From: Clostridium sp. | Lineage (GTDB): Bacteria > Bacillota > Clostridia > Lachnospirales > Lachnospiraceae | Assembly (NCBI GenBank): GCA_023664385.1 | Contig: JAMPFU010000012.1 | Coordinates: forward strand, 12,117 to 76,116 | DNA length: 64,000 nucleotides | Reading direction: 5' to 3' | Shown here: piece after piece, positions 1 to 26,977 of the stretch | Numbering within the stretch: position 1 is the first letter of the stretch | How the letters are laid out: the number at the start of each line of letters is the position of its first letter | Position numbers and translations under genes: made by a program | The notes under the pieces: generated by a model | What the model was told of the DNA's origin: nothing | What the model saw: only the letters and a program-made list of their open reading frames with translations | The model's database searches: none

Positions 1-3000
1 AGCAGCGCAAATATCGGCTCCCATATATACACATCCTTTGCAGCGCCAAAGGGATTGTCAATAAATATTGTCTTTGTCCGTATCTCCTCATTTCCAAGCT
101 GATACATGCCTGAAATGTAATTGATAATGGACACAAGGAACTGTATGTAGATACCCTGGGATTGTCCCGTGCTTCCAACAGCCTCCTCATATTTTAAATA
201 CCTGCTCTGCTCCTTGATGCGTTCCCGCTTATAAAGGCTCAGCTTTATTTTGTTCATGTCCGTCACGATAACGCCAAAAAGCTTTTTCAGTGCAAGGCTG
301 CCCCTTATAAATTTAATACGCTCCCTGTCATTTTCATAATCATCAGCCTGCGATACGATACCGTCAATGTAATCGGACATTCTCTGCTTTAAAAATTCAT
401 CCTTGACGTACGGTATTGTAAGCCCTACCATCTGTACTGCCTCATCGTCAACCATAATTCTCGAAAGTTTCGGCAGTTTATCAAGCTCTGTACGGACGTC
501 CATGCATCTCTGTAAGCACTGCTCCTCAAAGTTTGCCTTTATGGTTTCCATGTCAACAAGACTTTTTTCAATCCTGTCCCTCTCAAGCCTTATGTAATCG
601 ACTATGGATTTCAGGTTGTCCATAAGCTCCTTGGCTGCATCATAGGTATCAGGTATGATAACATCATTTCTTATGGTTGCCGCAAGCTCGTAAACCTCCA
701 TCTCGTCCAGTGAAACGGCAGTATTACCCTTAAATTTCAACAGCTCGCTTTTCGCCTTTTCCAAGGACTTACGGCTTCTATCGTAGGCTAAAAGGTTGTC
801 CTCAAAGATTCCTCTCAGCTTATCCTTATTCTCCGAAACAGGCTTTGCATGCTCTAAGCTTATATCATTTGTGACAATGATACGCTTCACATCCTTATAC
901 AGATCAAGCATATATCCCTGCTGCTTTGCATAATTCCGATACTGCTCATCACACTGCTTCGCCTCCGCCTCAAGACGTTCCAGCACCTCCTGACCGTTTT
1001 TCAGGTTTGTGACGATTTCAGATGCAGTTGCACTCTGCTCCTCATAGCTTCCAAATGCCGCCTCAATATTGCTGATGGCGTATTCTATGCTGCCCTCCAG
1101 CCTGCTTGCCGCAGCCTCCACTTCCTTTTTCTTATCCTGAAATGTTTTTAATCTCGCTTTTTGTTTTTCAATGTTCTCCTTGCAGTCTGCCAGCATTTTA
1201 TCATTTGAGGAATAGATTTGGTTGTTTTTCTCCTGCTCCTTTAAATCATCAACGCTGATTCCTCTTTTTTCAATCGCCTTGAGCGTTCTGTCCATTGCAT
1301 GTTTCAAGGTTTCCATAATAAGCTTTTTATCCTCAATGGTCTTTATCTCATCCCTGCCCTCGTCAAGCATCGCCGTAAACCTTGCCTTTATGTCGTCATC
1401 GCTTAACGTAAGCACGTCGCAAGGCTTATCAATGTTATAGTACGGCTTGTAGTGTACCTCCCATTCCGTAACCAAATCCTGAAGCTTTTTCTCGAGTGCC
1501 TCAAGATTTGCAACAGCCTCCTCATCAGCCCTTGAGCCGTCCTCGATGGCGGCTGTCAATCCTCTAATTTCTCCCTCAAGCCTGTCTATGTTTTTCTTAC
1601 ATTCATCGACAGTTTTTTCCTTTTCCTCCACCAAGGCAGAAAGTCTCGTTATGGTGTCAAGCCTTCCGACATCTCCAAGCTTTTCCTCATAGCGTGCCGT
1701 AAGCTCCTCCTGCTCCTGCTCCAAAGCCTTTATTCCATGCTTGATGTCCTTATTTTTCTCCTGGCAGGCAGCAATGTCCGAATCCTGCTCATACATCAGA
1801 CGTCTTGCATCACGAAGCTTGCGTGCCGCATCCATAAGCTCGCTCTCCTGCATACGGATGATAAACTGCTGGTCCTGCCTGTAGGTTGCAAGCATTTCCT
1901 CCTTAAATTCAAGCTTCAAGGCAAGCTCCTTAATGTTGCCTTCCTCCTCCTCAAGCAGCTTTACCCTTGTCTCCTCACTTGTGAGAAATTCTGCATCTGC
2001 ACGTATGCTCAAAACATTTTCTCCCACAATGAAAGCCTTTTCCAAAATAGCGTCCATATCAAATATATTCACCATTTCACTGCCTGTATCGACCCCTGAA
2101 ATATTAGGGTCATCCCTTATAATATCATATTCCTGCACAAGCAAGCCATATGGAAGCTCAGGGTTAATTTCCAAAAGCTCCCTCTGTTTATCCTGTGGAA
2201 GCGCAGAAATGTAATCCATGCCGTACATAGCCTGTATGCCATGTCTTCTCTCAAGATAATCCATAAGCTTCTTTGCAGCGGCAGAAACAGGAATAATCCT
2301 GCCCTCCGAAAGATTTTTTACCCTTTTTTTGTGCCGTTTCATCTCATCGGCAATGGCAGCATTTTCAAGCACGGTGGAGGTAATCCGTTCGGTGATTACC
2401 GTAAGCAGCTCCTCCCCGCCTGAAGCATAAACCGTCTTTATGTTGTCAAGCTTTTGGCTTGCCTCATTATACTGCTTTTCCTTCGCTTCAAGGGCTTCTA
2501 TCAGCTTATCATTTTCAGCCTTGGCAGCCTCGAGCCTTGAAAGCTCAAGCCTCGCCTCACTAAGCCTTTCATTGCTCTCCTTGATTTTTGCCGCCTTGTC
2601 AGAAATTTTCCATGCCAAATCCTTTCTGTCCTCGTCAAGCTGCTCCCTGTGCTCTCCAAAGGTGGCAAAGTTTAAATTGCTCATGGACATTTTAAGTCCT
2701 GCAAGCTGCTCGCTCAAGGAAACGATTTCATCATCGCATGCCTTCTTGATATTTACGGAAACAGCCTGCTCCACCCTTGCCTCCTGAAGCAGCCGCTGTT
2801 TATTTTCGACATTTTCCTGTTTTTCCTTCATCTGCGCTTTAATCACGTCAATCTTTTCCTGCACGATTGCCATGGAGGCATCCATCCGCATTTTGATGTT
2901 GTAGGCATAAGTATGAAGCATATCCTGGTCAAAGGGAGACTGTGCCGTTATCGTCTTCAGCATGGCGTCATGCCTGTGATATTTTTTTCTGTCGGACATA

Positions 3001-4193
3001 TAATCTATATATTCATTCATGCCCTCCTTAAAATTCAAATCATCGGTAAGCTCCTTCAGCTTATCCTCCGTCTCCTTTATGGCAGCCTCCACCTGTCCGA
3101 GATTATCGTACAGCTCGGACAGCTTATTCTTATCCCTTGCCACCTTAAGACATTCCATATATTTTCTCTGCTCATCCTTCTGCGTGCGCTTTTCGTCCCG
3201 AAGTCCTGCAAGCTCTGCCATTTTTTCCTCGTCATCCTTTGCAAACTCCTCGCCTGTAACGCATATGGCAGCCATAAGGCTTTCAAGACGGCTGAGCTCC
3301 TCATACAAATCCATAAATGAGCCTACCTTGTCGGAAAGCACGCCTACAAGCTCCATCTGACGGTCATAGCCCGCCATGTCCTTCTTCTTTTTTGCAAGTA
3401 TGGTAAGCTGCTCACGTATATCCATAAGCATTCTTGCCATAGCATCATCGCCTGTATCTTCACGCTGGGTTTTTACCATAAATGCCTTCTCAATGATTTC
3501 CTCTATGAGCAAATCCTCAACAACACGCCTTGTTGTTTTGTAATTATTTTCAAAATATGTTCTTACATGACCCTCAGTTTTATTGATGCCCCTTATAATC
3601 TCCCACTGGCTTTCGTGAAGCCCATAGCCGCTGATAAACCTCTGATACTCGCCCTTTCTGTCAAACACCCTTACCATAAGGGACATATCCTTATGCTCCA
3701 GGTCCTTTAAATAGGTTCTAAGCCCCTGAAAGCTGACCCGCTCGCCATTTTTTACGAGGGGAAGATTTATAATGTCATTTTTATTGTACTCCCTGTAAAA
3801 AATACAGTAATTAAAATATTCCACCGATGCAACGTCCTTTGACGTCTCGGTGTCGTCCCCTGCCTCCTTTGCCTTTCTGGCGCAAAAGCCTGTCGTCATA
3901 TATCTGTAGCCCTCTGTGCTGTCCTCCTTGTCAAGCCTCCATTCCACGAGAGAGTGAATTGTCGTATTTCCGTTTCCCGTCCTGAATAATTTTTCTATGG
4001 GCTGCTTCTCATCCAAGGTACAATTTGGTATCATGTTCTGCATAAGGAGAAGCATAAGCACGCTTTTTCCTCCACCGTTTGCCAAATCGTAGAGGGTGTT
4101 TTTTCCGTACATTCTCATGGTGAAATCGTCATAAAACTGGGTGCCGAAATTATATTTTACATTATTTACCCTTATTCTGTTTATACTAGGCAT
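1..4193 (-). CDS. SMC/MukB-like coiled-coil ABC-type ATPase; 3' end lies outside the window (>=1397 codons visible). Candidate JetC/MksF/MukB-type subunit
   Basis: Manual reverse-complement translation. The ATG at 4193 is preceded by GGGAGGTG and overlaps the stop of the upstream gene (ATGCCTAG). The N-terminus carries a P-loop-like motif, 'YDLANGGGKSVLM'. More than 1000 aa of E/K/L/Q-rich coiled-coil-like sequence follow; the + strand shows only Ser-rich shadow ORFs. Near position 150-1 there is a signature-like motif 'VGSTGQSQG', then 'TIFIDNPFGAAKD' (Walker B plus D-loop geometry as in MukB 'LSTGE...LLFLDEAARLD'). No stop codon occurs before position 1. Confidence 0.65.
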   Translation of the reverse strand, partial: MPSINRIRVNNVKYNFGTQFYDDFTMRMYGKNTLYDLANGGGKSVLMLLLMQNMIPNCTLDEKQPIEKLFRTGNGNTTIHSLVEWRLDKEDSTEGYRYMTTGFCARKAKEAGDDTETSKDVASVEYFNYCIFYREYNKNDIINLPLVKNGERVSFQGLRTYLKDLEHKDMSLMVRVFDRKGEYQRFISGYGLHESQWEIIRGINKTEGHVRTYFENNYKTTRRVVEDLLIEEIIEKAFMVKTQREDTGDDAMARMLMDIREQLTILAKKKKDMAGYDRQMELVGVLSDKVGSFMDLYEELSRLESLMAAICVTGEEFAKDDEEKMAELAGLRDEKRTQKDEQRKYMECLKVARDKNKLSELYDNLGQVEAAIKETEDKLKELTDDLNFKEGMNEYIDYMSDRKKYHRHDAMLKTITAQSPFDQDMLHTYAYNIKMRMDASMAIVQEKIDVIKAQMKEKQENVENKQRLLQEARVEQAVSVNIKKACDDEIVSLSEQLAGLKMSMSNLNFATFGEHREQLDEDRKDLAWKISDKAAKIKESNERLSEARLELSRLEAAKAENDKLIEALEAKEKQYNEASQKLDNIKTVYASGGEELLTVITERITSTVLENAAIADEMKRHKKRVKNLSEGRIIPVSAAAKKLMDYLERRHGIQAMYGMDYISALPQDKQRELLEINPELPYGLLVQEYDIIRDDPNISGVDTGSEMVNIFDMDAILEKAFIVGENVLSIRADAEFLTSEETRVKLLEEEEGNIKELALKLEFKEEMLATYRQDQQFIIRMQESELMDAARKLRDARRLMYEQDSDIAACQEKNKDIKHGIKALEQEQEELTARYEEKLGDVGRLDTITRLSALVEEKEKTVDECKKNIDRLEGEIRGLTAAIEDGSRADEEAVANLEALEKKLQDLVTEWEVHYKPYYNIDKPCDVLTLSDDDIKARFTAMLDEGRDEIKTIEDKKLIMETLKHAMDRTLKAIEKRGISVDDLKEQEKNNQIYSSNDKMLADCKENIEKQKARLKTFQDKKKEVEAAASRLEGSIEYAISNIEAAFGSYEEQSATASEIVTNLKNGQEVLERLEAEAKQCDEQYRNYAKQQGYMLDLYKDVKRIIVTNDISLEHAKPVSENKDKLRGIFEDNLLAYDRSRKSLEKAKSELLKFKGNTAVSLDEMEVYELAATIRNDVIIPDTYDAAKELMDNLKSIVDYIRLERDRIEKSLVDMETIKANFEEQCLQRCMDVRTELDKLPKLSRIMVDDEAVQMVGLTIPYVKDEFLKQRMSDYIDGIVSQADDYENDRERIKFIRGSLALKKLFGVIVTDMNKIKLSLYKRERIKEQSRYLKYEEAVGSTGQSQGIYIQFLVSIINYISGMYQLGNEEIRTKTIFIDNPFGAAKDVYIWEPIFAL

Positions 4194-4899
4194 CGGCTTC
4201 ACCTCCCAGCACCTTATATATCCTGCCCTTATACTCCTCAAAATAATTTTCCGCTATCGCCTTAAACCGCTTTGTAGGATAATATCTGTCCTCGACCTCC
4301 ACAAAAAGCTTCTGTGCCACAAGGAAATTAAAGGTAAGCTTAATGTAGCCTATGCGGGATGCCCTTGACGCCCTGTTTTTATCCTTGTCGTCAGAGGTTA
4401 CGGCGGGAAGCTCGTCCCACAAAAGGGCGATTGTCTTAAAGCTGTCCTCCTCAAGCTCATTCATGGAATAAACCGACAAATCGGACGTAATTCTTGAAAG
4501 ATAGGAGCTGACCTGCTCGAGCATATCGGAAAGCTTCACATACTCCTTCACCTGATATGCGGCAGAGTCCTGATAAAAGGAAAGCAGGGCATTGTACATA
4601 ATAAAATATACCATGTAAAGCTCCTTGTTTACCCGAAGTCCCAATAGTCTTTTCATATCGTCATTGGTGTACCCGAAGATACGGTTTCCGTCCCCTGCCG
4701 TTATGTATATGGAATCCTCATATTCATAAACATTCAGATTGAGCTTTTTCATCAGTCGGTTTGTAATGTCGTAAACTGCCTGATTGCCGTAATATTCCTC
4801 GTAAAGCTCCCTTGTATCAGCATTGGAACGGGACACCTCCTGCCCTGTTATCAGTGTGGAATATATATCCAGTGCTTTTTCAAGACTTTTTTCCTCCAT
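4186..4899 (-). CDS. Hypothetical 237-aa protein. Size and position match a KITE subunit (MukE/JetB-like), but there is no motif-level evidence
   Basis: ORF-track ORF. Its stop codon overlaps the start of the SMC-like gene, and its start abuts the stop of the 524-aa gene (4899/4902). The identity rests on gene order and size only. Confidence 0.35.
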   Translation of the reverse strand: MEEKSLEKALDIYSTLITGQEVSRSNADTRELYEEYYGNQAVYDITNRLMKKLNLNVYEYEDSIYITAGDGNRIFGYTNDDMKRLLGLRVNKELYMVYFIMYNALLSFYQDSAAYQVKEYVKLSDMLEQVSSYLSRITSDLSVYSMNELEEDSFKTIALLWDELPAVTSDDKDKNRASRASRIGYIKLTFNFLVAQKLFVEVEDRYYPTKRFKAIAENYFEEYKGRIYKVLGGEADA

Positions 4900-4901
4900 G
4901 T

Positions 4902-6476
4902 CTACCCGTTCCTCCTCTCAAAAACCATATCCGTTACAAACGCATTATCCTCCACATTTTCCACCGAAGCATCTGCGGGCATGAGATTGATAATCTCATC
5001 ACTGCGGGGTTCTACGGAAAATGACAGATCCCGAAACCTTATTATGTCCTCCTCCGACATATGTGTGACGACCATTTCCTCAAGCATGGTGTCCTGCTTT
5101 TCAAGCATTTTTTCAATGTCGTAGCTGTTCTTTCCTGCCAAATGTGCCAAAAAAGAGTAATAATCCCTGTTGGAATATATTTCATTTCCAAACTTTATTT
5201 CAAGAATACCGTTAAACTGCTTCAAATCTATTTTTTCCCACTTTTTAATCTGGTCTAACAGCTCCATAAATAACATATAGAAATTTTTTCCAATCTTTGC
5301 GTCCAATATCTCGTCATCGTATTTAAAATCAGGGTCGAGGGCATTTTTTTCCAATTTTTCTCCCTTATCCTTATCATCATTTTTCAACGAAAGCATATTG
5401 TCGATGCTTTTTATGGAAAATGACTTGTTAAGCTTCGGTGCAAAAAAAGGCATGAGCACATGTGCCATATCTGCGGGCTTATCCCGTTCCATCAGCTTGG
5501 ACATCATCTGCCTGAAATCAAATACGGGCCGAAGCTTCCGAAGCTTTGCCCTGCTGATTATGGAATCTGCAAGCTTTGTAAGCTCCACCGTTTCAGAAAT
5601 AAGCTGACTGTGATTATATATGGTTTTTTTTAGCTCCGTCTCAAGACTGCTGATGTCCTCCAATGTTTTCGACCTTAGTCCCTGTGTTCCTTCCCCGCTT
5701 TTCTCATAGCCGGCTCGCTCTATCGCCTTATCCACCAGCGCCTTGTTTTTTGCAAAAAGCTTCTGCTCGTCACTAAACCATTTTGCAGTCGTTTCCATGT
5801 ACTGCTCATATGCTCTTGTTCCCTCAAATACATCCACACTAAGAAGCTTCAAAACATTTTCTTTTTCAAGGGAAAGCTGCTTTACCTGACTGTTAATCCG
5901 CTTTACAACGTCAATGCCGCCCTTAAAATTATTTGAGCTTATGAGCTTCTCCAAAAGGAGTTGGGAAATGTTAATCCTGCTCTCGTCCTTTATCTCCTTT
6001 GTATCAAGATAAAACTCGATGCCCTCGGAGGTTATGTAATAGTAAACGGAGCCGTTTTCCACCCTGCTGTCGATAAGCTTCACTCTCGCTATTTTTCCTG
6101 TCTTTGCTTCAGGGTCATAAAATTTAAACTCAAATGCCCTTCCGTCATTTTTCAGCTTGTCAAATATGTAAAGCACAAGCTGTTTTTCCTCCTCAGGCTC
6201 CTCCTCAATATCAAAATCCCTCCGCAGCAGCTCCGTGAGAAATTTCTCGTACTCCTCGTAGGTAATGTCTTTTTCATGGAAATTATTTTCGTTGATGAAA
6301 AATCTTAAAGATGCCATAGTAATATAGCCCATGTCAAGGAGACTATATTTTCCCTCCTTATATTGGGAAAACGTAGTCTCGCTTAGCACAAAGAACGGAT
6401 AATATTTTTTCAGGTTCTGCATTCTCGTACTGTGCTCTGATATTATTTCATTTATCATCACATGTTTTAATGCCAT
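4902..6476 (-). CDS. Hypothetical 524-aa protein with no P-loop. Size and position match a kleisin (MukF/JetA-like), but this is an inference
   Basis: ORF-track ORF, 20 nt downstream of the vWA gene. Acidic/coiled segments are present and there is no GKS/T motif. The assignment rests on synteny with the 237-aa and SMC-like genes. Confidence 0.35.
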   Translation of the reverse strand: MALKHVMINEIISEHSTRMQNLKKYYPFFVLSETTFSQYKEGKYSLLDMGYITMASLRFFINENNFHEKDITYEEYEKFLTELLRRDFDIEEEPEEEKQLVLYIFDKLKNDGRAFEFKFYDPEAKTGKIARVKLIDSRVENGSVYYYITSEGIEFYLDTKEIKDESRINISQLLLEKLISSNNFKGGIDVVKRINSQVKQLSLEKENVLKLLSVDVFEGTRAYEQYMETTAKWFSDEQKLFAKNKALVDKAIERAGYEKSGEGTQGLRSKTLEDISSLETELKKTIYNHSQLISETVELTKLADSIISRAKLRKLRPVFDFRQMMSKLMERDKPADMAHVLMPFFAPKLNKSFSIKSIDNMLSLKNDDKDKGEKLEKNALDPDFKYDDEILDAKIGKNFYMLFMELLDQIKKWEKIDLKQFNGILEIKFGNEIYSNRDYYSFLAHLAGKNSYDIEKMLEKQDTMLEEMVVTHMSEEDIIRFRDLSFSVEPRSDEIINLMPADASVENVEDNAFVTDMVFERRNG

Positions 6477-6495
6477 TATCGCACCGGTATCTTTC

Positions 6496-8154
6496 CTACA
6501 ACTGACTGTTGAATAAGCTCTTTATCTTGTAAATAATATCCTCACTGTCCGCATTAATGCTGGCAGCTTCGTTAATTCCTGACACGTTCTGTAGCTCATT
6601 TGTATCTGCATCATTGCCATATCCGATTGTGTAAATTGGTATCTTTGCATTTGCAATTGTGCCCTTTATATTATCTAAATGCAGCTCACCGTTTGCATAG
6701 CCATCGGACAGAAGGATAATCATACATTTCGCATCAGGATTTTCCTCATGCTTTTTCTGCACCATATCTATCGCCACAACTAAAGCCTCATAGGTGTACG
6801 TGCTTCCCGAAGCCCGAAGTCCGTCAATGGCACCCTGAAAATAACTTCTCTGATTAAAATCAAACGGTGCAATCGGAAGCTCGATTGTCACATCGGATGA
6901 ATAGCTTACCATGCCAATGTAATTGTTGTCATTGATATACTTGGCACCGTTGGACAGACTGTATTTAAGCTGCTGCATCGGCTCGCCGTCCATGCTGCCT
7001 GAGCAGTCAGCAACAAATACTGCTATAATGTCATTTCCACTATCCTTGTGTCTTTTGTATACCTCCAACGCCTGAACAATCTCGGAGCCGCTTGTCGTAT
7101 AGTCATCCTGATAGTCGTCATTGGCATTAAATCCATTTCTTGTGGCTATCGCCTGAACATCACTGCTAAGCAGATAATCCTTAACGATATCCATTGCCGC
7201 GATTTCCTGTGGCGACTTGTTGTTTTTATTAACAATATAAAGCGGGTTGTCATGTCTTGCACCAAATGGTATAAAATCATATTGGCTTACAAGATTTTTG
7301 TCATTTATATACGCCTGATACTCTGACACAATCGCATCAAAATTCCCCTTTCCTGCACTGTCACGCATCTGCTGGGTTGTATATGCAATGTAAGGAATGT
7401 TGCCGTTAAAGGTCGAAAATGCTTCTATTGCCGTATCGCTGAACATATTGCTCTCGTCTGAGGTTTTCAAAATCTCAATGAGAAGATTAAGTCCTGTTGC
7501 ACTTGTCTGTGGATTTGTATATCCCAAATTAAGCTTTCCCGTTTTTACATCATTGATTACGCTATTTACATCTGTGTAGCCCGAATCCTTTTTCACCAGT
7601 ATTCCTGCCGTATTTCCTACAAGACGGTCTGCAAGCATGTCAAGCTTTGCTCCGCCCGCCTTCGCAAAATCTCCAAACAATTCATTGGACGGTGTATACA
7701 AATCAGGATAATATCTTCCTGAACGGATGTAGTCCGCAGCAAGCCCTGAGCTTACCGAGCGCACCGAAATACTTATAGTTTCTCCACTTTCAAGCGTATA
7801 GCCCCCTGCATTAAATTTTTCCGCAGCTTCTATCAGAAAATTGTCCGTATCCTGACCTGCTTTTTCTCCGGAAGTAAATATCTCAATGTCAATGTCGCCA
7901 TAGCCCTGTACTGCAAGGGGATATTTATCAATACTTGGAAGCTCGTCATACAGCGTATCGTCCTCAAGTGATATGGTACCCTTTTTCGGTGTTGCCTCTG
8001 TAACGCTTATATCCTCAAGCAGCTCATCAACAGGTCTGTCATCCCGTTCTTTTTTGTCAGAAATATTTTTTGTCAGCAGTGCCATAATAATGCCTGCCAT
8101 TAACATTACTACGATAACACCACAGAATACTATTTTCTTTCCGTCGTTGTTCAT
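6496..8154 (-). CDS. Membrane-anchored protein with an extracytoplasmic solute-binding-like region and a C-terminal von Willebrand factor A (vWA) domain
   Basis: A single N-terminal TM segment ('IVFCGVIVVMLMAGIIMALL'). A MIDAS-type motif 'VFVADCSGSMDG', followed by 'YSSDV...', 'ASGSTYTYEAL' and 'ILLSDGYANG', is typical of vWA domains. The SD AAGGGAGGA lies upstream of the ATG at 8154. Confidence 0.6.
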   Translation of the reverse strand: MNNDGKKIVFCGVIVVMLMAGIIMALLTKNISDKKERDDRPVDELLEDISVTEATPKKGTISLEDDTLYDELPSIDKYPLAVQGYGDIDIEIFTSGEKAGQDTDNFLIEAAEKFNAGGYTLESGETISISVRSVSSGLAADYIRSGRYYPDLYTPSNELFGDFAKAGGAKLDMLADRLVGNTAGILVKKDSGYTDVNSVINDVKTGKLNLGYTNPQTSATGLNLLIEILKTSDESNMFSDTAIEAFSTFNGNIPYIAYTTQQMRDSAGKGNFDAIVSEYQAYINDKNLVSQYDFIPFGARHDNPLYIVNKNNKSPQEIAAMDIVKDYLLSSDVQAIATRNGFNANDDYQDDYTTSGSEIVQALEVYKRHKDSGNDIIAVFVADCSGSMDGEPMQQLKYSLSNGAKYINDNNYIGMVSYSSDVTIELPIAPFDFNQRSYFQGAIDGLRASGSTYTYEALVVAIDMVQKKHEENPDAKCMIILLSDGYANGELHLDNIKGTIANAKIPIYTIGYGNDADTNELQNVSGINEAASINADSEDIIYKIKSLFNSQL

Positions 8155-8173
8155 TTATGTATCCTCCCTTTTA

Positions 8174-8788
8174 TTATATACTTGTTTTTTCCTTTGTATC
8201 AGAAGCATTGACCGTATAATCGGATTTTCCCAGCTCCTGCTTTTTTACCTCCTCAAGGCAATTCAGCAGGTCATCCACATATGCCATGTCAAGCGTCGTT
8301 AAATTTGTATCTATGTCAACAATCTGTTCCACAAGCCTGTTGAATTTCCCTACGAGAACATCTCCCTGCTTGCACAAATTATCTAAATATACCGGATTGG
8401 GTCTTGTGTAATAATCATAGGTTTCTATGTATGCCGCAGCACTATCCATATTAGAATGCATCTGCTCAAGGATTTTATAATACATGTCCTTCATGCTGTC
8501 TTCCGTATTATCTGCAAAAAAATCCTCTCTTGATTTTATGCTCTCGTATTGTCTGCTTATGGCATCAACCTGTTTTTTAAAAACTCCCTTTCTATCGCTG
8601 TCCTTAAGCTTTTCCTTTGCTTTCTGTCCCTTTAAAAGCATAAGATTTGCTCCAATTGTATAAATAAGCCACACAGCCGTAAAAGCAATGCTGACGCCCA
8701 CGCCGATGGTGTTTTTGAATACAGACAGCATAAGCAATATAATGATAAACATAATAGCGCTGATTGCATTAACTGCTAAAAAATTCAT
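8174..8788 (-). CDS. Small membrane protein (204 aa from the internal ATG): two TM helices followed by a charged coiled-coil-like cytoplasmic region
   Basis: The ORF-track ORF starts at 8959. I favour the in-frame ATG at 8788 ('MNFLAVNAISAIMFIIILLML...') because it is preceded by AAGGAGA. This gene is the first of the five-gene operon. Confidence 0.45.
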   Translation of the reverse strand: MNFLAVNAISAIMFIIILLMLSVFKNTIGVGVSIAFTAVWLIYTIGANLMLLKGQKAKEKLKDSDRKGVFKKQVDAISRQYESIKSREDFFADNTEDSMKDMYYKILEQMHSNMDSAAAYIETYDYYTRPNPVYLDNLCKQGDVLVGKFNRLVEQIVDIDTNLTTLDMAYVDDLLNCLEEVKKQELGKSDYTVNASDTKEKTSI

Positions 8789-8850
8789 ATGTAGTATATT
8801 CTCCTTACACAATATGATGTAATATGTAATTGCGAAACTATGTTTTTTAG

Positions 8851-8880
8851 ATAATACGTTGTTCAAAATGTATAATTCAA
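8851..8880 (-). promoter_or_regulatory. Candidate sigma-A promoter for the five-gene operon: TTGAAT-N18-TATTAT on the minus strand
   Basis: Reverse complement of 8851-8880 read by eye. It lies about 60 nt upstream of the 8788 start. Confidence 0.3.
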
Positions 8881-8884
8881 TGCA

Positions 8885-9136
8885 TGGCACGCTTGCGCTG
8901 CTTGTCGCACGTAACGGTACTAAGCTCGAAAATACCTCGCTAAGTACCGACGGCTCCAAAGCGCCTTTGCGTATGAATTATACATTTTGCACAACTCACT
9001 TTTTTTGAAACCACTAAGTTGCGCAATTGCCTATATGATGTAATAATATCCTAAGGAATCCGTCTGCTTCGCAGACACCTTGTCACTTTGTCCTAAGGCA
9101 TCCTCCCAGCTTCGCTGGGTCTCTCCTTAGGACATA
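8885..9136. repeat. GC-rich intergenic hairpin-repeat block. The 45-nt element at 9090-9136 has a near-identical second copy at 55951-55995
   Basis: 9049-9078 reads 'tcctaaggaatccgtctgcttcgcagacacc'. 9090-9136 reads 'gtcctaaggcatcctcccagcttcgctgggtctctccttaggacata'. Compare 55951-55995, 'gtcctaagacatcctcccacttcgtgggtccctccttaggacata'. Both have an outer 8-bp stem (gtcctaag/cttaggac) and an inner stem with a CUUCG-type loop. The substitutions between copies are compensatory. Confidence 0.6.
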
Positions 9137-9199
9137 TTATATCATACTTTACGCAAAGAATAAAACTATTATTACCGATATAAGTTGTTTCCTGTAAAG

Positions 9200-9240
9200 T
9201 AAAAAAGCATTTAAGCTATTGCCCTAAATGCTTTTTATTT
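9200..9240 (-). terminator. Rho-independent terminator hairpin at the 3' end of the RelE/ParE gene
   Basis: The stem aaaagcattta / taaatgctttt is followed by a T-run on the minus strand. The hairpin overlaps the toxin stop codon (9235-9237). Confidence 0.5.
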
Positions 9241-9573
9241 GGGATATGTATAATTTTGCTGTTCTTTCAGTATATTTTTCCAATCCCTTTCCTCCCGTAA
9301 CACCCTCAAAATGTGTATTTCATTTTCCAGTTCTTTGATTACATAGAATATAATGGACGGTGGAAAAGCTTTCTTAAAAATGGAATACGAACGATAATGG
9401 ATATGCGTGTTGCCATAGATACCTCCCATATATCCAATGTCTTTTATCTGTTGTTTTATTTCTTTTTCAAATCTGTCGGCACGGTTTTTTCCAAAATCCC
9501 GTTCAATATAATCGGCAATGTCCGTCAAATCGTATATTGCCTCCCACGTCAAAATAACTTTATGCTCTTGCAT
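9235..9573 (-). CDS. Type II toxin-antitoxin toxin, RelE/ParE family
   Basis: 112 aa. The sequence '...IHILRVLREERDW' and the overall RelE/ParE pattern are present. The toxin start overlaps the stop of a 55-aa upstream ORF. Confidence 0.65.
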   Translation of the reverse strand: MQEHKVILTWEAIYDLTDIADYIERDFGKNRADRFEKEIKQQIKDIGYMGGIYGNTHIHYRSYSIFKKAFPPSIIFYVIKELENEIHILRVLREERDWKNILKEQQNYTYPK

Positions 9574-9727
9574 TTCTCCTTATATCCCTCAATTCTGTAA
9601 TTTTTTGGAATGCTTCGTCAATCGGAAGCTCTCTGTCCGCCTCCATGTCATCAATTCCCCTATCCAACATTTGTAACAAATCATCATCTTGCTGTAAAAT
9701 ATTTTTATTATCTACTATCATATCCAT
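9560..9727 (-). CDS. Candidate antitoxin (55 aa) of the RelE/ParE module
   Basis: Manual translation gives MDMIVDNKNILQQDDDLLQMLDRGIDDMEADRELPIDEAFQKITELRDIRRNARA*. The SD AAGGAGTGGGTGAT lies upstream. Its stop codon overlaps the toxin ATG, and the toxin SD (AGGAGAA) lies inside its 3' end. Small acidic proteins in this position are typical antitoxins. Confidence 0.45.
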   Translation of the reverse strand: MDMIVDNKNILQQDDDLLQMLDRGIDDMEADRELPIDEAFQKITELRDIRRNARA

Positions 9728-9767
9728 ATCACCCACTCCTTATTTTCTGTATTTATAGTATTTCATT

Positions 9768-9777
9768 ATTGTACAAT
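9768..9777. promoter_or_regulatory. Perfect 10-bp palindrome ATTGTACAAT in the promoter region of the TA module (candidate autoregulatory operator)
   Basis: Seen directly in the sequence, about 40 nt upstream of the antitoxin ATG, next to a TATAAT-like element. Confidence 0.25.
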
Positions 9778-10184
9778 TTTATTATATACTACATAGCTTA
9801 TCATATTTAAAAGTCCACAACAAGAAATTCTTTCTTCAATAAATTCCTGTTTCCTTGTCTGCACTGCAAAATATCCCTGTGCAAACGCAATCTCCTCCTT
9901 TTGGGGGTCACCATGTAATCCTTTATTTTTCGTTTTGCTCCACTCCTAGGCTGAATCATTTTCGTGACCTCACGAAAATGGTCTAACATATCTTGATTAT
10001 ATATTGGGGATATACACATAAGTATATAGTTTATTATACCATAAAAATATTTCAAATAAAATATCTAACTGTAATTTTCAATCACGTGCCTATAGAACAA
10101 CGCATCTTCGATGCCGTAGTTCGCATCTTGACAGACTCCGTAAGGAACATGGTATAGAAAATTCATCTACATTTCCTATACCAT

Positions 10185-10228
10185 ACAAAAACGGACTACA
10201 ATTCATTGATTATAGTCCGTTTTGTTTT
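10185..10228 (-). terminator. Rho-independent terminator downstream of the YhgE/Pip gene
   Basis: The stem aacggacta / tagtccgtt is followed by TTTTTGT on the minus-strand RNA. Confidence 0.5.
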
Positions 10229-10268
10229 ACTATCCTACATAGCCTGTCAGCGTTGTACAATTGACAAG

Positions 10269-12458
10269 CTACTCTATGGAGTCAGTCCTGTATATAAATT
10301 TTACGCTTCCCCTTACATCATCCGCTTTGCCTGCAAAGGTCTGATACTCCTTTGATACATCTACTACAGCCTTTATTCTCGCTATGAGAACCTCCACATC
10401 TCCGTCAAATGCCTCCACAAGCTTCTGTATGCCCTTCTCGTTAAATTCCTTCATGCCGTTCAAAAGCTGCTCGGAGCCGTCAGAAAGCTCATTTTCTCCT
10501 GAGACAAGAGCAGCCGTTCCATCCTTCAGGGTTTCCATTCCTGAATACAGGGTATTCGTTCCCTCTGTCAGAGTAGATGCACCTGTGGATAAATTTTGTG
10601 CACCTGCATTAAGCTCGGCAGAACCACTTACAAGCTGATTGCTTCCACTGTATGCCGTATCTACTCCTTGTGTATACGTAACAACACCGTCATAAAAAGC
10701 TTTATAGCTGTCAAGCTGCGCAATCAGCGCCTGTATGCTGCCTGCCCCCGACTGTGCTTCGGCAACGGCAGCATTTATTTTTGTAGTGACATCCGATGAA
10801 GCCATATTGTCATTTATGAGGGACTGCACCTTTGCCTCGGTGTTTGCATCAATGACCGCCTGCATGTCTGCGCCTGCAACAGTTGCATCTACTGCTCCGT
10901 CTATCGCTGTCCTTGTAGCATCATCAACTAAGCCTGCGGAAACGGCAGCCTCATAGTCGGCAGACGTCATGCCAAGTCCCTGTGAATCAAGCACCCCCTG
11001 AAGCACCTGCGCCCGCACTGCTTTTTCTACCTCTGCGCGTATTGTCGGTCTGCCTGCATTTACTGCATCCGTAACCTGTGAAAGTGCCGTATTGTATGCC
11101 ATACTATATACTGCGTCACTGTTTAAGGACCCGAGAACGCCACTTAGGGTTTCCTTATAATTTTCAATTGTAAGCTTTGGAACGGAAAGTCCTGCTGCCG
11201 CAAGCTGACTGTCTGCCGCTGCAAGGAGCGAATCAAACACCTGCGCTGCCCCGTCCCTTAAATCCTGACTGCTTCCGCTCAGTGCCGCAAGCCCCTGATT
11301 AAGCTGTACAATTCCCGCATCCAAGGCTTGCGCTCCTGTGCTTATCTGTGCAGCACCCGTACTTATTTGGGAGGCTCCTGTGTTTACTGCGCCTGCGCCT
11401 GTGTGCAGGTCGTTTACACCTGACACAAGCGTTTGTGATTTGGTGACAAGCAATTTAATTCCATCATAAAGCGCCGATGAGCCGTCCACAAGCGCAAGGG
11501 AGGAGTCTGAAAGCGTATCAAGTGACGCCTGTAAATCCTCCAATGTACTTATATCATCTAAGTTAAGGGAGTTAAAAACGTCATTTGTTGCAAGGGTGAT
11601 TGTAGTTGCCATTGAAAAGTCCTTCACGTCCGCCGTGATTTCAACATAGTCGGGAATCGCAAGCTTTTCCTCAGACAGTGCAAGGCTTTCCTGTAGCCCT
11701 GGAAGGGCATATGCCATAACGATGCTTTTGTCCCCATCATTTATAATTTTTCCATTTGAAACCGTTATATTTGTAAATTTGGAATCGTCAACTACCATTC
11801 CTGTTACCATCACAAAAGGAACATATACGGTTTCCTTTTCTCCGTCAATCAAAACCGTTTGTGATTCATTATTTTTATAATCAAATCTTATGGTTACCCT
11901 GCCGCTTTTGCCTGCCAGCTCTGTTGCCGATACAGCCCTGCCATCCAGCTTATAGCTTATCTTCACATCAACAGGAAGCGCCTTGTTCGTTGTTCCCTGA
12001 TAATAGATGTCATTTCCACCGGCGTCCCATATTGTCATATTGTCGGGGTTTATTGTATAGCTTTCATAACCCTTAACATTTTCAATGTTATCAAGCTCCG
12101 ATATATCCTCCAATTGGTCGAGATTTTTTGGGTTCTTCAACCAGTCGCTTACAATTACCTTGTTGATTGTGCCGTCAGCACTTGCAAGAACATACACCGT
12201 TTCCTCCTTGCCTGCCTCAGCCTTATTGTCAATGATTGATTCCATTGCCGTTTCACCTGATGCTTCGTCGGACGCCCGAGACAAGGAAACATCTGCTGTG
12301 CCACTTACCTCCATTCCAGCCTCTGCCGACAGCTCCTGCAGCTGTACCTCTTTTAAATTTGTAACACTGCCTGCACCTGCCGCATAGCCTGCCATACCCG
12401 TAATAAGCGCAGCCGCAACAGCCAAAGAAACAACTTTATACTTTTTCTTATCTCTCAT
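10269..12458 (-). CDS. YhgE/Pip-family (phage infection protein-like) secreted/membrane protein
   Basis: 729 aa with an N-terminal signal/TM. A large extracytoplasmic region carries Ala/Gly/Ser-rich 'TGA..' repeats. It sits immediately downstream of an MMPL transporter, the typical YhgE-MMPL pairing. Confidence 0.55.
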   Translation of the reverse strand: MRDKKKYKVVSLAVAAALITGMAGYAAGAGSVTNLKEVQLQELSAEAGMEVSGTADVSLSRASDEASGETAMESIIDNKAEAGKEETVYVLASADGTINKVIVSDWLKNPKNLDQLEDISELDNIENVKGYESYTINPDNMTIWDAGGNDIYYQGTTNKALPVDVKISYKLDGRAVSATELAGKSGRVTIRFDYKNNESQTVLIDGEKETVYVPFVMVTGMVVDDSKFTNITVSNGKIINDGDKSIVMAYALPGLQESLALSEEKLAIPDYVEITADVKDFSMATTITLATNDVFNSLNLDDISTLEDLQASLDTLSDSSLALVDGSSALYDGIKLLVTKSQTLVSGVNDLHTGAGAVNTGASQISTGAAQISTGAQALDAGIVQLNQGLAALSGSSQDLRDGAAQVFDSLLAAADSQLAAAGLSVPKLTIENYKETLSGVLGSLNSDAVYSMAYNTALSQVTDAVNAGRPTIRAEVEKAVRAQVLQGVLDSQGLGMTSADYEAAVSAGLVDDATRTAIDGAVDATVAGADMQAVIDANTEAKVQSLINDNMASSDVTTKINAAVAEAQSGAGSIQALIAQLDSYKAFYDGVVTYTQGVDTAYSGSNQLVSGSAELNAGAQNLSTGASTLTEGTNTLYSGMETLKDGTAALVSGENELSDGSEQLLNGMKEFNEKGIQKLVEAFDGDVEVLIARIKAVVDVSKEYQTFAGKADDVRGSVKFIYRTDSIE

Positions 12459-12481
12459 GATAATTCCTCCTTATATTTAGG

Positions 12482-14587
12482 TTATGAATACTGTTCTATC
12501 ATTTCCGCAGCTTTTTTCCTCCGGACAAAGCCGATGCTGGTTGCACATATCAGCTTATCAAACAATCTAAGCAATGACGGAAGAATAAGTATAACCGACA
12601 CCATGCTTACCATTGAGCCCCTTGCCATAAGCAGACACATGGAGCTTATCATATCAACCTCAGAGTACATTCCAACGCCAAAGGTTGCAGCAAAAAATCC
12701 AAAAGCACTTACAATAATAGACGGTATGGATGCTGACAGGGCATTTCCTGCTGCCTCCTTTTTGTCAAGCCCGCCAAGTCTTTCACGCTTATATCTTGTC
12801 GTCATAAGTATGGCATAATCCACGGTCGCCCCAAGCTGAATCGTACTGATACATATCGGTGCCACAAAAGGCAGTGCGGTATGCGTAAAGTACGGAATGC
12901 CAAGGTTTATAAATATGGCAAATTCTATTACCGATACAAGAAGCACCGGCAGGGATAGGCTCTTAAACACAAACAATATTATGATAAATATTGCCGCTAT
13001 GGAAAGCCAGCTTACGACCATAAAGTCATGGTCTGTTATCTCTATTAAATCCTTTGTACATGGCGCCTCGCCGATTAGCATGCCATTTGGGTCAAATTTT
13101 TTAAGCACATCGTTTATCTCATCAATCTGCGCATTTACCTCATCTGTGGCAACCTTATATTGGGAGCTTACCATTAACAGCTTATAGTTATCACTTTCAA
13201 GAATTTCAGTTACCGATTCAGGAAGCATCGTCTCAGGAATCAGCGAGCCTACAATTGTTTCCAAGCCTAAAACCGCTTTCACCCCCTCAACTGCTTCAAT
13301 GCCCTCCATCATTTCCTTCATCTGCTTCTGCGACATCGCTGAATCCACAAGTATCATATGCGTGCTTCCCATATCAAACTCATCCTGAAGCTTTGTATTT
13401 GCTATGACAAAATTCATATCCTCAGGAAGCGACTCCGAAAGGTCATAGTAAACCTCTGCCTTCTGATAGCCGTAAAATGCAGGTCCCACAATAGCAAGAA
13501 ACAATAGTATAAATGCAGGTGCAAGCTTAACAACCCGCTTTGCAAATTTATCCATGTTTGGTATGATTGATTTATGCCTTGTCTTTTCAATTGCTTTATC
13601 AAATACAAGTATCATGGACGGAAGTGTCGTCACGCAGCCAATTACGCCAAACACAACTCCCTTTGCCATAACAATTCCAAGATCCTTTCCAAGTGTAAAG
13701 CTCATAAAGCAAAGTGCCAAAAAGCCTGCAACCGTTGTAATGGAGCTTCCCACAACCGAGGATAGGGTTTTTCCGATTGCAGATGCCATTGCACCTTCCT
13801 TATCTTTACCATAATTTCCCTTTTCCTCCGTATAGCTGTGCCACAGGAATATGGAATAGTCCATTGTGACGCCAAGCTGAAGCACTGCCGAAAGTGCCTT
13901 GGTGATATAGGATATTTCTCCAAACACTATGTTTGTTCCAAGGTTCATAAGGATTGCCATTCCTATGCTTGCAAGGAAGATAAACGGTATCAAAAACGAA
14001 TCCATGAAAATCATCATGACAATCGTTGCACAAAGTACTGCAAGCCCTACATAAACCGGCTCCTCAGTCTCACACAATTCTTTCAAATCCGTAACCATTG
14101 CAGACATTCCCGTCACAAAGCATTGCTTTCCCATAAGCTTTCTTATTTCACTGATTGCCTCCATGGTTTCATCTGCACTTGTAGAGGTATCGAAAAATAT
14201 CGCCATAAGTGTTGCATCTTCCTTATTAAATACCTCATAGTATTTGTCAGGAAGAAGCTCCATCGGGATTGACACATCTGCTATGCTGTCATACCATATG
14301 GCTGTTTCAACATGGTTGATTTCCTCTACACGTTCCTTTACATCGGATATTTCCTTTGGGGTCATACCCTCGATTACAACGATGGAAAAAGCTCCCTTTC
14401 CAAAATCATCAAGAAGAATCTCCTGCCCTTTTACCGTATCAATATCTCCCGGAAGATAATCAAGCATATCGTAATTGATACGTGTGTTAAGCATTCCAAA
14501 AAGAGATGGTATAAGGAGTAAAACTGCGATGATTAAAATGGGGATTTTAAATTTTACCACTGCCTTTCCAAATCTGCTCATAGCCAT
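12482..14587 (-). CDS. MMPL/RND-superfamily membrane transporter
   Basis: 701 aa with two blocks of multiple TM helices separated by soluble loops, the MMPL architecture. Confidence 0.65.
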   Translation of the reverse strand: MAMSRFGKAVVKFKIPILIIAVLLLIPSLFGMLNTRINYDMLDYLPGDIDTVKGQEILLDDFGKGAFSIVVIEGMTPKEISDVKERVEEINHVETAIWYDSIADVSIPMELLPDKYYEVFNKEDATLMAIFFDTSTSADETMEAISEIRKLMGKQCFVTGMSAMVTDLKELCETEEPVYVGLAVLCATIVMMIFMDSFLIPFIFLASIGMAILMNLGTNIVFGEISYITKALSAVLQLGVTMDYSIFLWHSYTEEKGNYGKDKEGAMASAIGKTLSSVVGSSITTVAGFLALCFMSFTLGKDLGIVMAKGVVFGVIGCVTTLPSMILVFDKAIEKTRHKSIIPNMDKFAKRVVKLAPAFILLFLAIVGPAFYGYQKAEVYYDLSESLPEDMNFVIANTKLQDEFDMGSTHMILVDSAMSQKQMKEMMEGIEAVEGVKAVLGLETIVGSLIPETMLPESVTEILESDNYKLLMVSSQYKVATDEVNAQIDEINDVLKKFDPNGMLIGEAPCTKDLIEITDHDFMVVSWLSIAAIFIIILFVFKSLSLPVLLVSVIEFAIFINLGIPYFTHTALPFVAPICISTIQLGATVDYAILMTTRYKRERLGGLDKKEAAGNALSASIPSIIVSAFGFFAATFGVGMYSEVDMISSMCLLMARGSMVSMVSVILILPSLLRLFDKLICATSIGFVRRKKAAEMIEQYS

Positions 14588-14724
14588 TACCTCTTTTCCT
14601 TTTACTATAATTTTCCTAAAAGCTTTGTTTCATTAGGAAATATAGTATTAAAACCGACCGAAAACAATAAACACAAAAAAAGATGTGCACAAAATTTGTG
14701 CACACCCTTTAAAATGTACTAAAA

Positions 14725-15294
14725 TTATTTTTTGCTGACACGTTCTAATGTCAGACGGATATTTCCATCAAAAATTCTGCTAAGCTCATATATGGCAGTC
14801 TCCGCATCATCCTTCATGTTCCTTTGCAGCCACTCGAAAATAATGCCTACCACTGCATGCTTATAGAAAAGGGCAACATACATAATATCCATATCAGATA
14901 CTTCCATGCCGTCCGCCTGAACCTTTACAAAATCCAGCATAATCTCCTGTGCGACCCTGTAGAGATACCGCTCAAGCTGTTCACGATTTACGGAATTGTA
15001 AATGTGATAGATAGCCGTCTTGTTCTCAAGCAGAAACTCTGTAATGTGAATGAGTGCATCACGCCATGACTCATACGGTCTGTACTCCTCAAACATAGCC
15101 TGTGCCTGTGTCTCAAATATATCTTCAAGCAGAGCATATATGTCCTGATAATGATAGTAAAATGTATTTCGGCTTATACCGCACTCGCAAACAATATCCT
15201 TAACGGATATTTTTTCAAGTGGACGTTCATTTAAAAGCTTCATGAACGTTTCCTTAATAACCCTTTCAGTTACCGACATATTATGCCTTTCCAA
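14725..15294 (-). CDS. TetR/AcrR-family transcriptional regulator
   Basis: N-terminal HTH 'ISVKDIVCECGISRNTFYYHYQDIYALL'. The true start may be the internal ATG at 15279, just after the fba stop. Confidence 0.7.
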   Translation of the reverse strand: MERHNMSVTERVIKETFMKLLNERPLEKISVKDIVCECGISRNTFYYHYQDIYALLEDIFETQAQAMFEEYRPYESWRDALIHITEFLLENKTAIYHIYNSVNREQLERYLYRVAQEIMLDFVKVQADGMEVSDMDIMYVALFYKHAVVGIIFEWLQRNMKDDAETAIYELSRIFDGNIRLTLERVSKK

Positions 15295-16144
15295 CAGAAC
15301 CGAAAAGCTCCATCTTCTCCTTAACGGTTGCCTTTATAGCCTCTGCACCCGGAGCAAGAAGCTTACGTGGGTCAAAGCCTTTGCCCTGCTGATCCTTGCC
15401 TTCCTCAATATATTTTCTTGTTGCCTCCTGGAAGGAAAGCTGGCACTCAGTATTTACGTTAATCTTTGAAACGCCAAGTGAAATAGCCTTCTTAATCATA
15501 TCCTCAGGAATACCTGTACCGCCATGAAGCACGAGAGGCATAATGCCTGTCTTTTCCTGAACTGCCGCAAGTGTTTCAAAGCTAAGACCTGCCCAATTTT
15601 CAGGGTACTTGCCATGAATATTACCGATGCCTGCTGCAAGCATGTCCACACCCAAATCAGCAATTGCCTTGCACTCATTCGGATCTGCACACTCGCCTGC
15701 ACCGATAACTCCGTCCTCCTCGCCGCCGATGGAACCAACCTCAGCCTCAATGGAAAGTCCTAAGTTATGTGCTACATTTACAAGCTCCCGTGTCTTTGCA
15801 ATGTTCTCCTCAATCGGATAGTGTGAGCCGTCAAACATGATTGAGGTAAAGCCTGCCTTAATACACTTATAGCATCCTTCATAGGTACCATGGTCTAAGT
15901 GAAGCGCTACTGGAACGGTAATTCCAAGCTCCTCGTCCATAGCCTTTACCATAGCCGTAACCGTCTTAAAGCCTGTCATATACTTTCCTGCACCCTCCGA
16001 TACACCTAGGATAACAGGTGAGTTAAGCTCCTGTGCAGTTAAAAGGATTGACTTCGTCCACTCAAGGTTATTGATATTGAACTGACCGACAGCGTACTTG
16101 CCTTCCTTTGCCTTTTTAAGCATCTCTGTAGCTGAAACTAACAT
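15281..16144 (-). CDS. fba: Fructose-bisphosphate aldolase, class II
   Basis: 'LHLDHG', 'HGGTG' and the overall class II FBA sequence. The start at 16144 is preceded by GGAGGAAC; the ORF-track start at 16165 is probably 7 codons too long. Confidence 0.85.
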   Translation of the reverse strand: MLVSATEMLKKAKEGKYAVGQFNINNLEWTKSILLTAQELNSPVILGVSEGAGKYMTGFKTVTAMVKAMDEELGITVPVALHLDHGTYEGCYKCIKAGFTSIMFDGSHYPIEENIAKTRELVNVAHNLGLSIEAEVGSIGGEEDGVIGAGECADPNECKAIADLGVDMLAAGIGNIHGKYPENWAGLSFETLAAVQEKTGIMPLVLHGGTGIPEDMIKKAISLGVSKINVNTECQLSFQEATRKYIEEGKDQQGKGFDPRKLLAPGAEAIKATVKEKMELFGSVGKA

Positions 16145-16433
16145 TTTTTTGTTCCTCCGTTTCATTATATATTTTTGTAATTCGCAGCGTCACGCCACGC
16201 TGTTAATTGCTTTCGCAAAATATTATACAATAAAACCCATTCTTTTACAATGATGAATAATGTGGTTTTATATGAAGCTCTATATGTCTATATGCGTGTC
16301 TTACGGCATGATTGGTTTCCATTTTAATATGTCCCGCCTGTAGCTTTATTATGTACGCTTATATTGCCTGCCCTTCTTCCGAGTATAAAAAATGATACCC
16401 TCTAACGGCATACTATCATTTTTTCTTTGAAGC

Positions 16434-26611: not shown

Positions 26612-26977
26612 CCCAGCAAAACGTCTGCATACAGTATCTTTCTCAAATACGGACAGCCTCTCTGCTTAAATTGTAATGTAATGAACTCAAAACATCGAAG
26701 TTCCGAATTTTTCTGATTATTTGATGAGGCTTGTACCCCAAAACAGAATAGAAAGATAAATGCTTTAGAGAGATGATAGCACAAGAGCGTATATAATGCA
26801 AGGCATTTTTCTTTTCCAAATTCCAAATTTTTTTATTTTTCAATCGATAACCGGGAAATATCTTATTTAAAAAATTGAGTTATGAAAAATAGACAAAATC
26901 ATAAATAGGCACTTTGAAGTTGCTAATGTTTCGTGAGGTATTTTCCAACTTAGTACAATTATGTGCAATAGTCAAAA

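Follow-up and report, generated by a model that had tools for sequence, protein, structure and literature searches.

A 64,000-nt stretch of the genome of a Clostridium sp. of the Lachnospiraceae (contig JAMPFU010000012.1, positions 12,117 to 76,116; hereafter the window) begins with a run of five closely spaced genes on the minus strand, in which two genes for putative envelope proteins are followed by three genes for a structural maintenance of chromosomes (SMC) complex of the Wadjet/Muk group. The original prediction, made from the letters of the window, took all five as one operon on an accessory island and proposed that the two envelope proteins make the SMC complex a membrane-tethered or signal-coupled variant. 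The five open reading frames (ORFs) have the sizes given there, namely, 204, 552, 524, 237, and at least 1397 aa; the last of these is open from position 4193 to base 1 (1397 codons) and continues past the edge of the window. The intergenic gaps are 19, 19, 2, and −8 nt, so that the last two agree with the predicted values and the first two are each 1 nt shorter than the 20 nt claimed. A Shine-Dalgarno (SD)-like motif precedes each start, as predicted, and these read, in gene order, AAGGAG, GGGAGG, AGGAAAG, GAGGAGG, and GGGAGG, the one before the 524-aa gene being weak. For the 204-aa gene, the ATG at position 8788 was taken as the start, a longer TTG alternative at 8959 having no SD motif. 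The features of the locus are listed in Table 1.

TABLE 1 Features of the five-gene run and of its upstream border in the window
Feature	Coordinates	Strand	Basis
jetC, type III JetC, SMC-family ATPase	1–4193	−	PADLOC JetC3 model PDLC00581
jetB, type III JetB, KITE subunit, DUF6063, 237 aa	4186–4899	−	PADLOC JetB3 model PDLC00571, Pfam
jetA, type III JetA, kleisin, 524 aa	4902–6476	−	PADLOC JetA3 model PDLC00560
Cassette/jetA junction	6477–6497	−	blastn breakpoint and upstream alignment
Membrane-anchored SBP_bac_11 and vWA (MIDAS) protein, 552 aa, second cassette gene	6496–8154	−	Pfam
2-TM hairpin and helical-domain protein, 204 aa, first cassette gene	8174–8788	−	Homologues beside vWA gene
Dispersed repeat with 22-nt inverted termini	8802–8998		Directly upstream of cassette
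ParE toxin (9235–9573) and 55-aa antitoxin-like ORF (9560–9727)	9235–9727	−	PF05016

The three downstream genes match, end to end, the PADLOC hidden Markov models (HMMs) for type III Wadjet (JetABCD), a class that was reportedly introduced by Doron and coworkers in 2018 and is encoded in that database. The 524-aa protein matched the JetA3 model with an E value of 3.6e-214 (residues 1 to 521 on profile positions 1 to 507 of 511), the 237-aa protein matched the JetB3 model (E = 3.1e-102) as well as Pfam DUF6063 (E = 1.8e-47; 162 bits, with a cutoff of 27), and the portion of the large protein lying in the window matched the JetC model (E = 0; 1632 bits; profile positions 1 to 1404 of 1473). The complete protein, taken from a closely related contig described below, scored 1793 bits across the full JetC3 profile. 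Other searches were uninformative: Pfam and NCBIfam returned for JetA and JetC only coiled-coil noise to SMC/Rad50 models, far under the cutoffs; sequence searches of PDB chains with a JetA profile and with the JetB and JetC sequences returned nothing relevant; and a literature search on DUF6063 gave no result.

The ATPase motifs quoted in the original prediction are present in the large protein, which has a P-loop, LANGGGKSV, at residues 37 to 45 and, in its C-terminal part, the sequences VGSTGQSQG (signature-like) and KTIFIDNPFG (Walker B strand). Across 70 related loci, all three motifs are invariant and the reading frames are intact; the middle region of JetC is poorly conserved (20 to 44% in the same loci). 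The Walker B aspartate is followed by asparagine, where glutamate is usual, and comparison of the motifs suggests that the ATPase chemistry is unusual throughout the type III branch. The Walker B form hhhhD-N-P-F-G is common to the 70 loci, all of which lack JetD, and to the JetC of a JetD-containing operon from Pontibacillus (see below); the signature motif reads STGQ in the JetD-less loci versus SGGE in Pontibacillus JetC.

Support from structure is modest. The AlphaFold2 models of JetA and JetB were weak (predicted local distance difference test [pLDDT] scores of 64 and 50, respectively), the poor JetB model being due to the fact that the listed JetB homologues are all at least 78% identical. 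When the low-confidence JetB model was searched with Foldseek, seven of the nine best matches were MukE chains, with other KITE proteins next, and MukF was the first match to the weak JetA model, at fold E values of only about 4e-3 to 7e-3 for the two proteins. No match was obtained when a 16-sequence JetB3 profile was aligned to Escherichia coli MukE with hhalign. Taken together with the type III models, these matches support the assignment of the 524-aa, 237-aa, and large proteins to a kleisin/KITE/SMC set of the Wadjet/Muk group, and the MukFEB-like or JetABC-like trio that had been proposed from gene order and size is thus borne out.

The sequence beyond the left edge of the window was read from contig JAMPEW010000018.1 (L001), which encodes an identical JetB protein and is 96% identical in DNA to window positions 1 to 8824. 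JetC comprises 1466 aa in L001, which places its last 69 codons beyond base 1 of the window, and after a 27-nt gap it is followed by a gene for a 295-aa radical SAM protein (L001 positions 10382 to 11269, left of the window end), an 86-aa ORF, malic enzyme, and a MoxR ATPase. In a JetA alignment scan of one genome per species, 261 relatives were found, and the best 80 loci, with JetA 53 to 97% identical, were examined. These best 80 carry Lachnospiraceae-type names, e.g., Wujia and Coprococcus, cultured carriers being Coprococcus hominis CLA-AA-H212, C. aceti H2_11, and C. ammoniilyticus H1_22, and the JetA-JetB-JetC trio was found in them wherever the contig was long enough. The synteny that recurs runs from a fructose-bisphosphate aldolase gene, across a variable interval, to JetABC, radical SAM, malic enzyme, and MoxR. 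The radical SAM gene directly follows jetC in 44 loci (gap of 9 to 93 nt), usually with malic enzyme and MoxR next, and is absent from about one-third of the loci that retain JetABC. Its product is related to the PA0069/Rv2578c families (NCBIfam E = 2.4e-47, under cutoff), which we take to be relatives of the SplB-like “DNA repair photolyases”; it could be a functional partner of JetABC or merely syntenic.

Across these loci, JetABC diverges in step with its neighbors, the radical SAM and MoxR genes (Spearman rho for identity, 0.76 to 0.84). Relative to three close relatives, the ratio of nonsynonymous to synonymous substitutions (dN/dS) was 0.004 to 0.018 for JetB and 0.054 to 0.067 for JetA and JetC, at a dS of about 0.4 to 0.57, and all five genes of the run are under purifying selection. 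A scan of viral contigs found no JetA relatives, and a search of plasmids with JetA found only one distant relative, the Pontibacillus operon. Because of the conserved housekeeping synteny and the strong purifying selection, the jetABC locus behaves as a core-like gene set and not as the accessory island that had been suggested.

A complete type III Wadjet also includes the nuclease JetD. The canonical gene order was drawn from a single operon, that of the Pontibacillus sp. ALD_SL1 megaplasmid NZ_CP062975 (L088), which contains an annotated JetD-domain protein and has the order JetD-JetA-JetB(DUF6063)-JetC, with JetD overlapping the start of JetA. The original prediction had proposed to look leftward, past the SMC gene, for a JetD whose presence would indicate Wadjet and whose absence would indicate an Mks- or MukBEF-like condensin; none is found there, and for type III this is the wrong side. 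Since JetD precedes JetA in the Pontibacillus operon, it was also sought upstream of jetA, where the vWA gene of the window occupies the position in which JetD stands in the canonical operon. L001, which extends the window leftward, has no JetD on either side of the trio. tblastn and phmmer searches with Pontibacillus JetD gave no match at an E value of ≤10 in 81 sources and 1468 ORFs, the window included, and reached ±10 kb around the related loci and the whole 64-kb window; the JetA and JetB proteins of the same Pontibacillus operon, used as positive controls, gave 46 and 81 matches, respectively. None of the ten window ORFs of JetD-like size (255 to 466 aa) is JetD. PADLOC, run on representative neighbors in the related loci, found no JetD, and the representative up- and downstream neighbors of these jetABC loci are housekeeping or membrane genes. 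Unannotated ORFs of 394 to 407 aa and of 667 to 698 aa upstream of jetA in some loci were also considered as JetD and were rejected, having no Pfam match and no phmmer similarity to JetD. The locus therefore belongs to a jetABC clade without a detectable gene for the JetD Toprim nuclease nearby.

It is conceivable, but in our judgment unlikely, that this is nevertheless a working anti-plasmid Wadjet whose nuclease acts in trans, either as a JetD encoded elsewhere or as another effector, e.g., the SplB/PA0069-like radical SAM protein. The best HMM matches of the trio are, after all, defense-database models (JetA3, JetB3, and JetC3), the radical SAM gene lies within 93 nt of jetC in 44 loci and diverges in step with JetABC, and a candidate defense gene, PDC-S01, lies about 10 kb away. 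In the Wadjet systems described in reviews, however, jetD is one of the operon genes, the searches that covered ±10 kb around the related loci and the whole 64-kb window gave no JetD, the radical SAM gene is missing from about a third of the JetABC loci, and housekeeping synteny combined with very low dN/dS is atypical of defense islands.

The two genes upstream of jetA were then compared on their own terms. In the 552-aa protein, a single hydrophobic segment at the N terminus (residues 4 to 32) is followed by a SBP_bac_11 domain (Pfam E = 1.2e-14; residues 107 to 342) and a VWA domain (E = 2e-19; residues 379 to 538); the latter contains the predicted metal ion-dependent adhesion site (MIDAS) motif DCSGSMDG, and MIDAS residues D383, S385, S387, T452, and D484 are invariant in 15 relatives. 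Behind the single N-terminal anchor, both domains are predicted to be extracytoplasmic. The family has more than 2000 relatives, and the SBP_bac_11 plus VWA architecture was present in all 120 of 120 among the matches listed. The 204-aa protein is built of a hydrophobic hairpin at its N terminus, i.e., two transmembrane (2-TM) segments, and a helical domain that, by the positive-inside rule, would be cytoplasmic. Its family (102 representatives at 50% identity) is without a Pfam model, and neither the protein itself nor 44 family members matched any Pfam entry, the XpaC model included; a presumed resemblance to XpaC in size and topology could not be confirmed. A scan of viral contigs for the vWA protein found none.

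On the vWA side, 85 loci were compared whose relatives are 41 to 66% identical to the 552-aa protein. In 45 of 67 loci, the gene immediately before the vWA gene encodes a homologue of the 204-aa protein, whereas neither JetA, JetB, nor JetC was found in any of the 61 loci in which the downstream sequence was long enough; what is conserved is therefore a two-gene cassette composed of the 2-TM gene and the SBP-vWA gene. Elsewhere, relatives of this cassette stand alone or have other neighbors, namely, a flotillin/Band_7 protein, FtsH-like proteases, a 352- to 423-aa protein, or a riboflavin operon. The 352- to 423-aa protein, which matches sigma-70 region 4 weakly (E = 8.4e-4), is encoded ahead of the small 2-TM gene in a branch of the cassette that is 58 to 63% identical (L086/L087 positions 6096 to 7367 and 23 similar loci); it may be a third cassette component or a regulator, and the window has no counterpart.

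In the branch that is 41 to 50% identical, the order is small 2-TM/helical protein, SBP-vWA protein, and TelA (Pfam PF05816, E = 5.6e-72), and alignment with hhalign (probability, 98.2%; E = 3.5e-14) shows that the small proteins of these TelA-linked cassettes are homologues of the 204-aa family. This arrangement, with which xpaC-telA of Bacillus and Enterococcus may be compared, is like that of the window in that a small 2-TM/helical protein is encoded beside the SBP-vWA protein, but the window cassette differs from the TelA-linked ones in that it is without TelA and its 204-aa protein is without an XpaC match; TelA was found neither in the window nor in cassette relatives that are 56 to 66% identical, being confined to the 41 to 50% branch. 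Because of the TelA link and the SBP_bac_11 family, presumably of the molybdate/sulfate-binding type, the likeliest role of the cassette would be in envelope or toxic-anion stress.

The cassette is found upstream of jetA in 3 of the 68 loci with room for it (L003, L005, and L008), in each of which JetA is at least 93% identical. The JetA of L004 is likewise 93% identical, yet an ABC-transporter pair is in the cassette position there. In cassette-free loci, the genes upstream of jetA are those for fructose-bisphosphate aldolase, LemA, rhomboid, MatE, DegV, GreA, DUF6034, or subtilase proteins, and the interval between the aldolase gene and jetA varies even among close relatives. blastn homology to the cassette-free loci L004, L006, and L007 starts at window position 6497 and resumes at 10270; the breakpoint at 6497 is one base beyond the vWA stop codon. 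Upon alignment of the upstream regions, the vWA stop TAG was found to overlap the conserved jetA SD motif AGGAAAG, and L004, L006, and L007 were found to have a common upstream sequence that is different from that of the window. As judged from this alignment, the cassette has replaced the native upstream region of jetA up to the ribosome-binding site in this lineage. Since it has done so, and since no terminator-like site was found in the 19-nt gap between the vWA gene and jetA, read-through is expected, and cotranscription of all five genes is likely.

The idea that the five genes form one system, in which the vWA/solute-binding membrane sensor and its 2-TM partner pass an envelope signal to a Wadjet- or Mks-like SMC complex, fares poorly against these comparisons, and we consider it very improbable. 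All five do lie on one strand with gaps of 19 nt, no terminator-like site was found, the cassette reaches right up to the ribosome-binding site of jetA with its vWA gene in the position of the canonical type III JetD, and purifying selection acts on all five. The adjacency, however, was found only in those 3 of 68 JetA loci and not in a further relative at 93%, Jet genes accompany the vWA relatives in 0 of 61 loci, the cassette has other partners (TelA, flotillin, and the sigma-70 region 4-like protein), and its vWA and SBP domains are predicted to be extracytoplasmic, away from DNA. A conserved functional coupling of the cassette with JetABC, and with it the proposed membrane-tethered or signal-coupled variant, is not supported; the five-gene adjacency is a chance juxtaposition, an accident of insertion specific to the lineage. 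The original prediction had itself named a lack of linkage to the SMC genes in other genomes as the sign of a chance adjacency. Least likely of all, and contradicted by the selection data, is a decaying, nonfunctional type III remnant left after loss of JetD, since the absence of JetD from the loci searched and a Walker B motif without the usual glutamate would fit decay, but frames are intact and head motifs invariant in 70 loci, dN/dS is 0.004 to 0.067 at a dS of about 0.4 to 0.57, and the D-N Walker B also occurs in the JetD-containing Pontibacillus operon.

The explanation that we consider probable is that the window holds two unrelated modules, a nuclease-free SMC complex similar to MksBEF and MukBEF and an independent envelope cassette, which look like a single transcription unit in this species group only. 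By analogy with other Wadjet/Muk-group complexes, JetC dimers bridged by JetA and JetB would load on DNA and would extrude DNA loops with ATP. Without JetD, the captured DNA would not be cut and the extrusion-then-cleavage reaction of Wadjet immunity would be impossible; from the missing JetD it would follow that JetABC most likely acts as an organizer of chromosomal or other large DNA and not as a plasmid-cleaving defense. The complex is inherited with its chromosomal neighbors in Lachnospiraceae such as Wujia and Coprococcus. The cassette inserted between the aldolase gene and jetA, where the sequence is variable, and jetABC is probably transcribed by read-through from it in this lineage.

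Several points weigh against this explanation. A JetD or another nuclease may possibly be encoded elsewhere in the genome, beyond the loci and window that were searched, and the radical SAM gene, tightly linked to jetC in 44 loci, could be a functional partner. The structural evidence, as described above, consists of weak models, marginal fold E values, and an empty hhalign comparison with MukE. Having D-N instead of D-E in its Walker B motif, JetC may differ in ATPase chemistry from the SMC proteins that have been studied; we know of no functional characterization of type III Wadjet complexes, with or without JetD. Lastly, the 19-nt spacing and the lost native upstream region probably tie JetABC expression to the cassette in this lineage, a regulatory link that is real, though young.

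Like the Pontibacillus type III operon, the Lachnospiraceae locus has a DUF6063 JetB, the order JetA-JetB-JetC with overlapping or near-overlapping genes, and the same JetC head motifs, including the D-N-P-F-G Walker B (Pontibacillus JetC, L088 positions 11284 to 16401). Unlike that operon, in which JetD overlaps the start of JetA, it has no JetD; JetC is 1466 aa, versus 1705 aa in Pontibacillus; the proteins are only about 25% identical to their Pontibacillus counterparts; and the locus is chromosomal and syntenic, whereas the Pontibacillus operon is on a plasmid. With MukBEF of E. coli and MksBEF of Pseudomonas aeruginosa, it has in common a kleisin-KITE-SMC trio without MksG/JetD, of fitting gene order and sizes, that is chromosomal and conserved and whose weak JetA and JetB models match MukF and MukE first. 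It differs from MukBEF in that no similarity of the Lachnospiraceae trio to MukE, MukF, or MukB is detectable in sequence, and from both in that it belongs to the type III branch and occurs in Clostridia. A role in chromosome organization or segregation would have only indirect support, from the conserved synteny, the codivergence with the flanking genes, and the very low dN/dS.

MukBEF and P. aeruginosa MksBEF are nuclease-less members of the Wadjet group that organize chromosomes. Loss of the nuclease (MksG/JetD) has been mapped at several places in the Wadjet tree, and a preprint by Burmann et al. is reported to list nuclease-less Wadjet operons in its supplement. A nuclease-less Wadjet-group SMC operon is thus of an already recognized kind, here drawn from the type III branch and fixed in gut Lachnospiraceae. 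More tentatively, and with clearly more doubt than attaches to the two-module explanation itself, a type III branch may have lost its nuclease and been domesticated in gut Lachnospiraceae as a second, vertically inherited, chromosome-folding SMC. An MksBEF/MukBEF-like condensin would then have arisen separately from those of the proteobacteria, possibly with the SplB/PA0069-like radical SAM protein as its partner, and in the species of the window its expression would have been captured by an envelope-stress cassette.

If studied, the jetABC clade would provide a Firmicute counterpart to MksBEF and MukBEF and a natural test of a Wadjet motor unable to cut DNA. Pipelines that name these genes Jet may miscount them as plasmid defense. 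The locus also illustrates that a recent insertion can yield tight, operon-like packing, and neighborhoods in relatives should be checked before composite systems are proposed.

The upstream border of the cassette is variable, and the RelE/ParE module and hairpin repeats that the original prediction had placed there are real, lying at window positions 8800 to 9140 (hairpin and inverted repeats) and just beyond (ParE; PF05016, E = 5.4e-10). The segment containing ParE, about 8815 to 10265, is missing from L005; the ParE module is a lineage-specific insertion outside both modules. The dispersed repeat directly upstream of the cassette is about 200 nt long, with inverted termini at 8858 to 8879 and 8974 to 8995, and has a copy at L005 17649 to 17846 and a partial one at window 26869 to 26966; the segment from 8828 to 9086 is absent from the 96%-identical L001. 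The repeat looks like a miniature inverted-repeat transposable element and marks the left border of the cassette, which is variable. One of its termini contains a sigma-70-like site (8880 to 8851, minus strand). A further repeat, a GC-rich hairpin about 50 nt long, recurs between genes at window 9090 to 9141 and 55951 to 56000, at L005 1549 to 1597, and at L006 4602 to 4651; it looks like a repetitive extragenic palindrome and has no Rfam match. Since Rfam gave no match to an RNA family anywhere in the window, the sequence ahead of the cassette, although it looks structured, is no known riboswitch.

Farther upstream, window positions 10269 to 15294 (minus strand), between the cassette and the aldolase gene, encode a TetR regulator (189 aa), an MMPL-family transporter (701 aa), and a 729-aa repeat-rich protein; these genes are also present in L004 and L005 and not in L008. 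Beside the ParE module, an 82-aa ORF at 9807 to 10055 (minus strand; 81 aa in L001) matches PADLOC PDC-S13 (E = 3.6e-18) only in the 60 final positions of that model and is apparently a gene fragment. The candidate defense gene about 10 kb upstream of the cassette, at 18500 to 19699 (minus strand), encodes a 399-aa protein that matches PADLOC PDC-S01 (E = 7.8e-150). A 286-aa ABC-type ATPase encoded at 43813 to 44673 (minus strand) gave moderate PADLOC matches to mad3, AriA, and HEC models (best E = 2.5e-27), which may reflect generic ATPase similarity.

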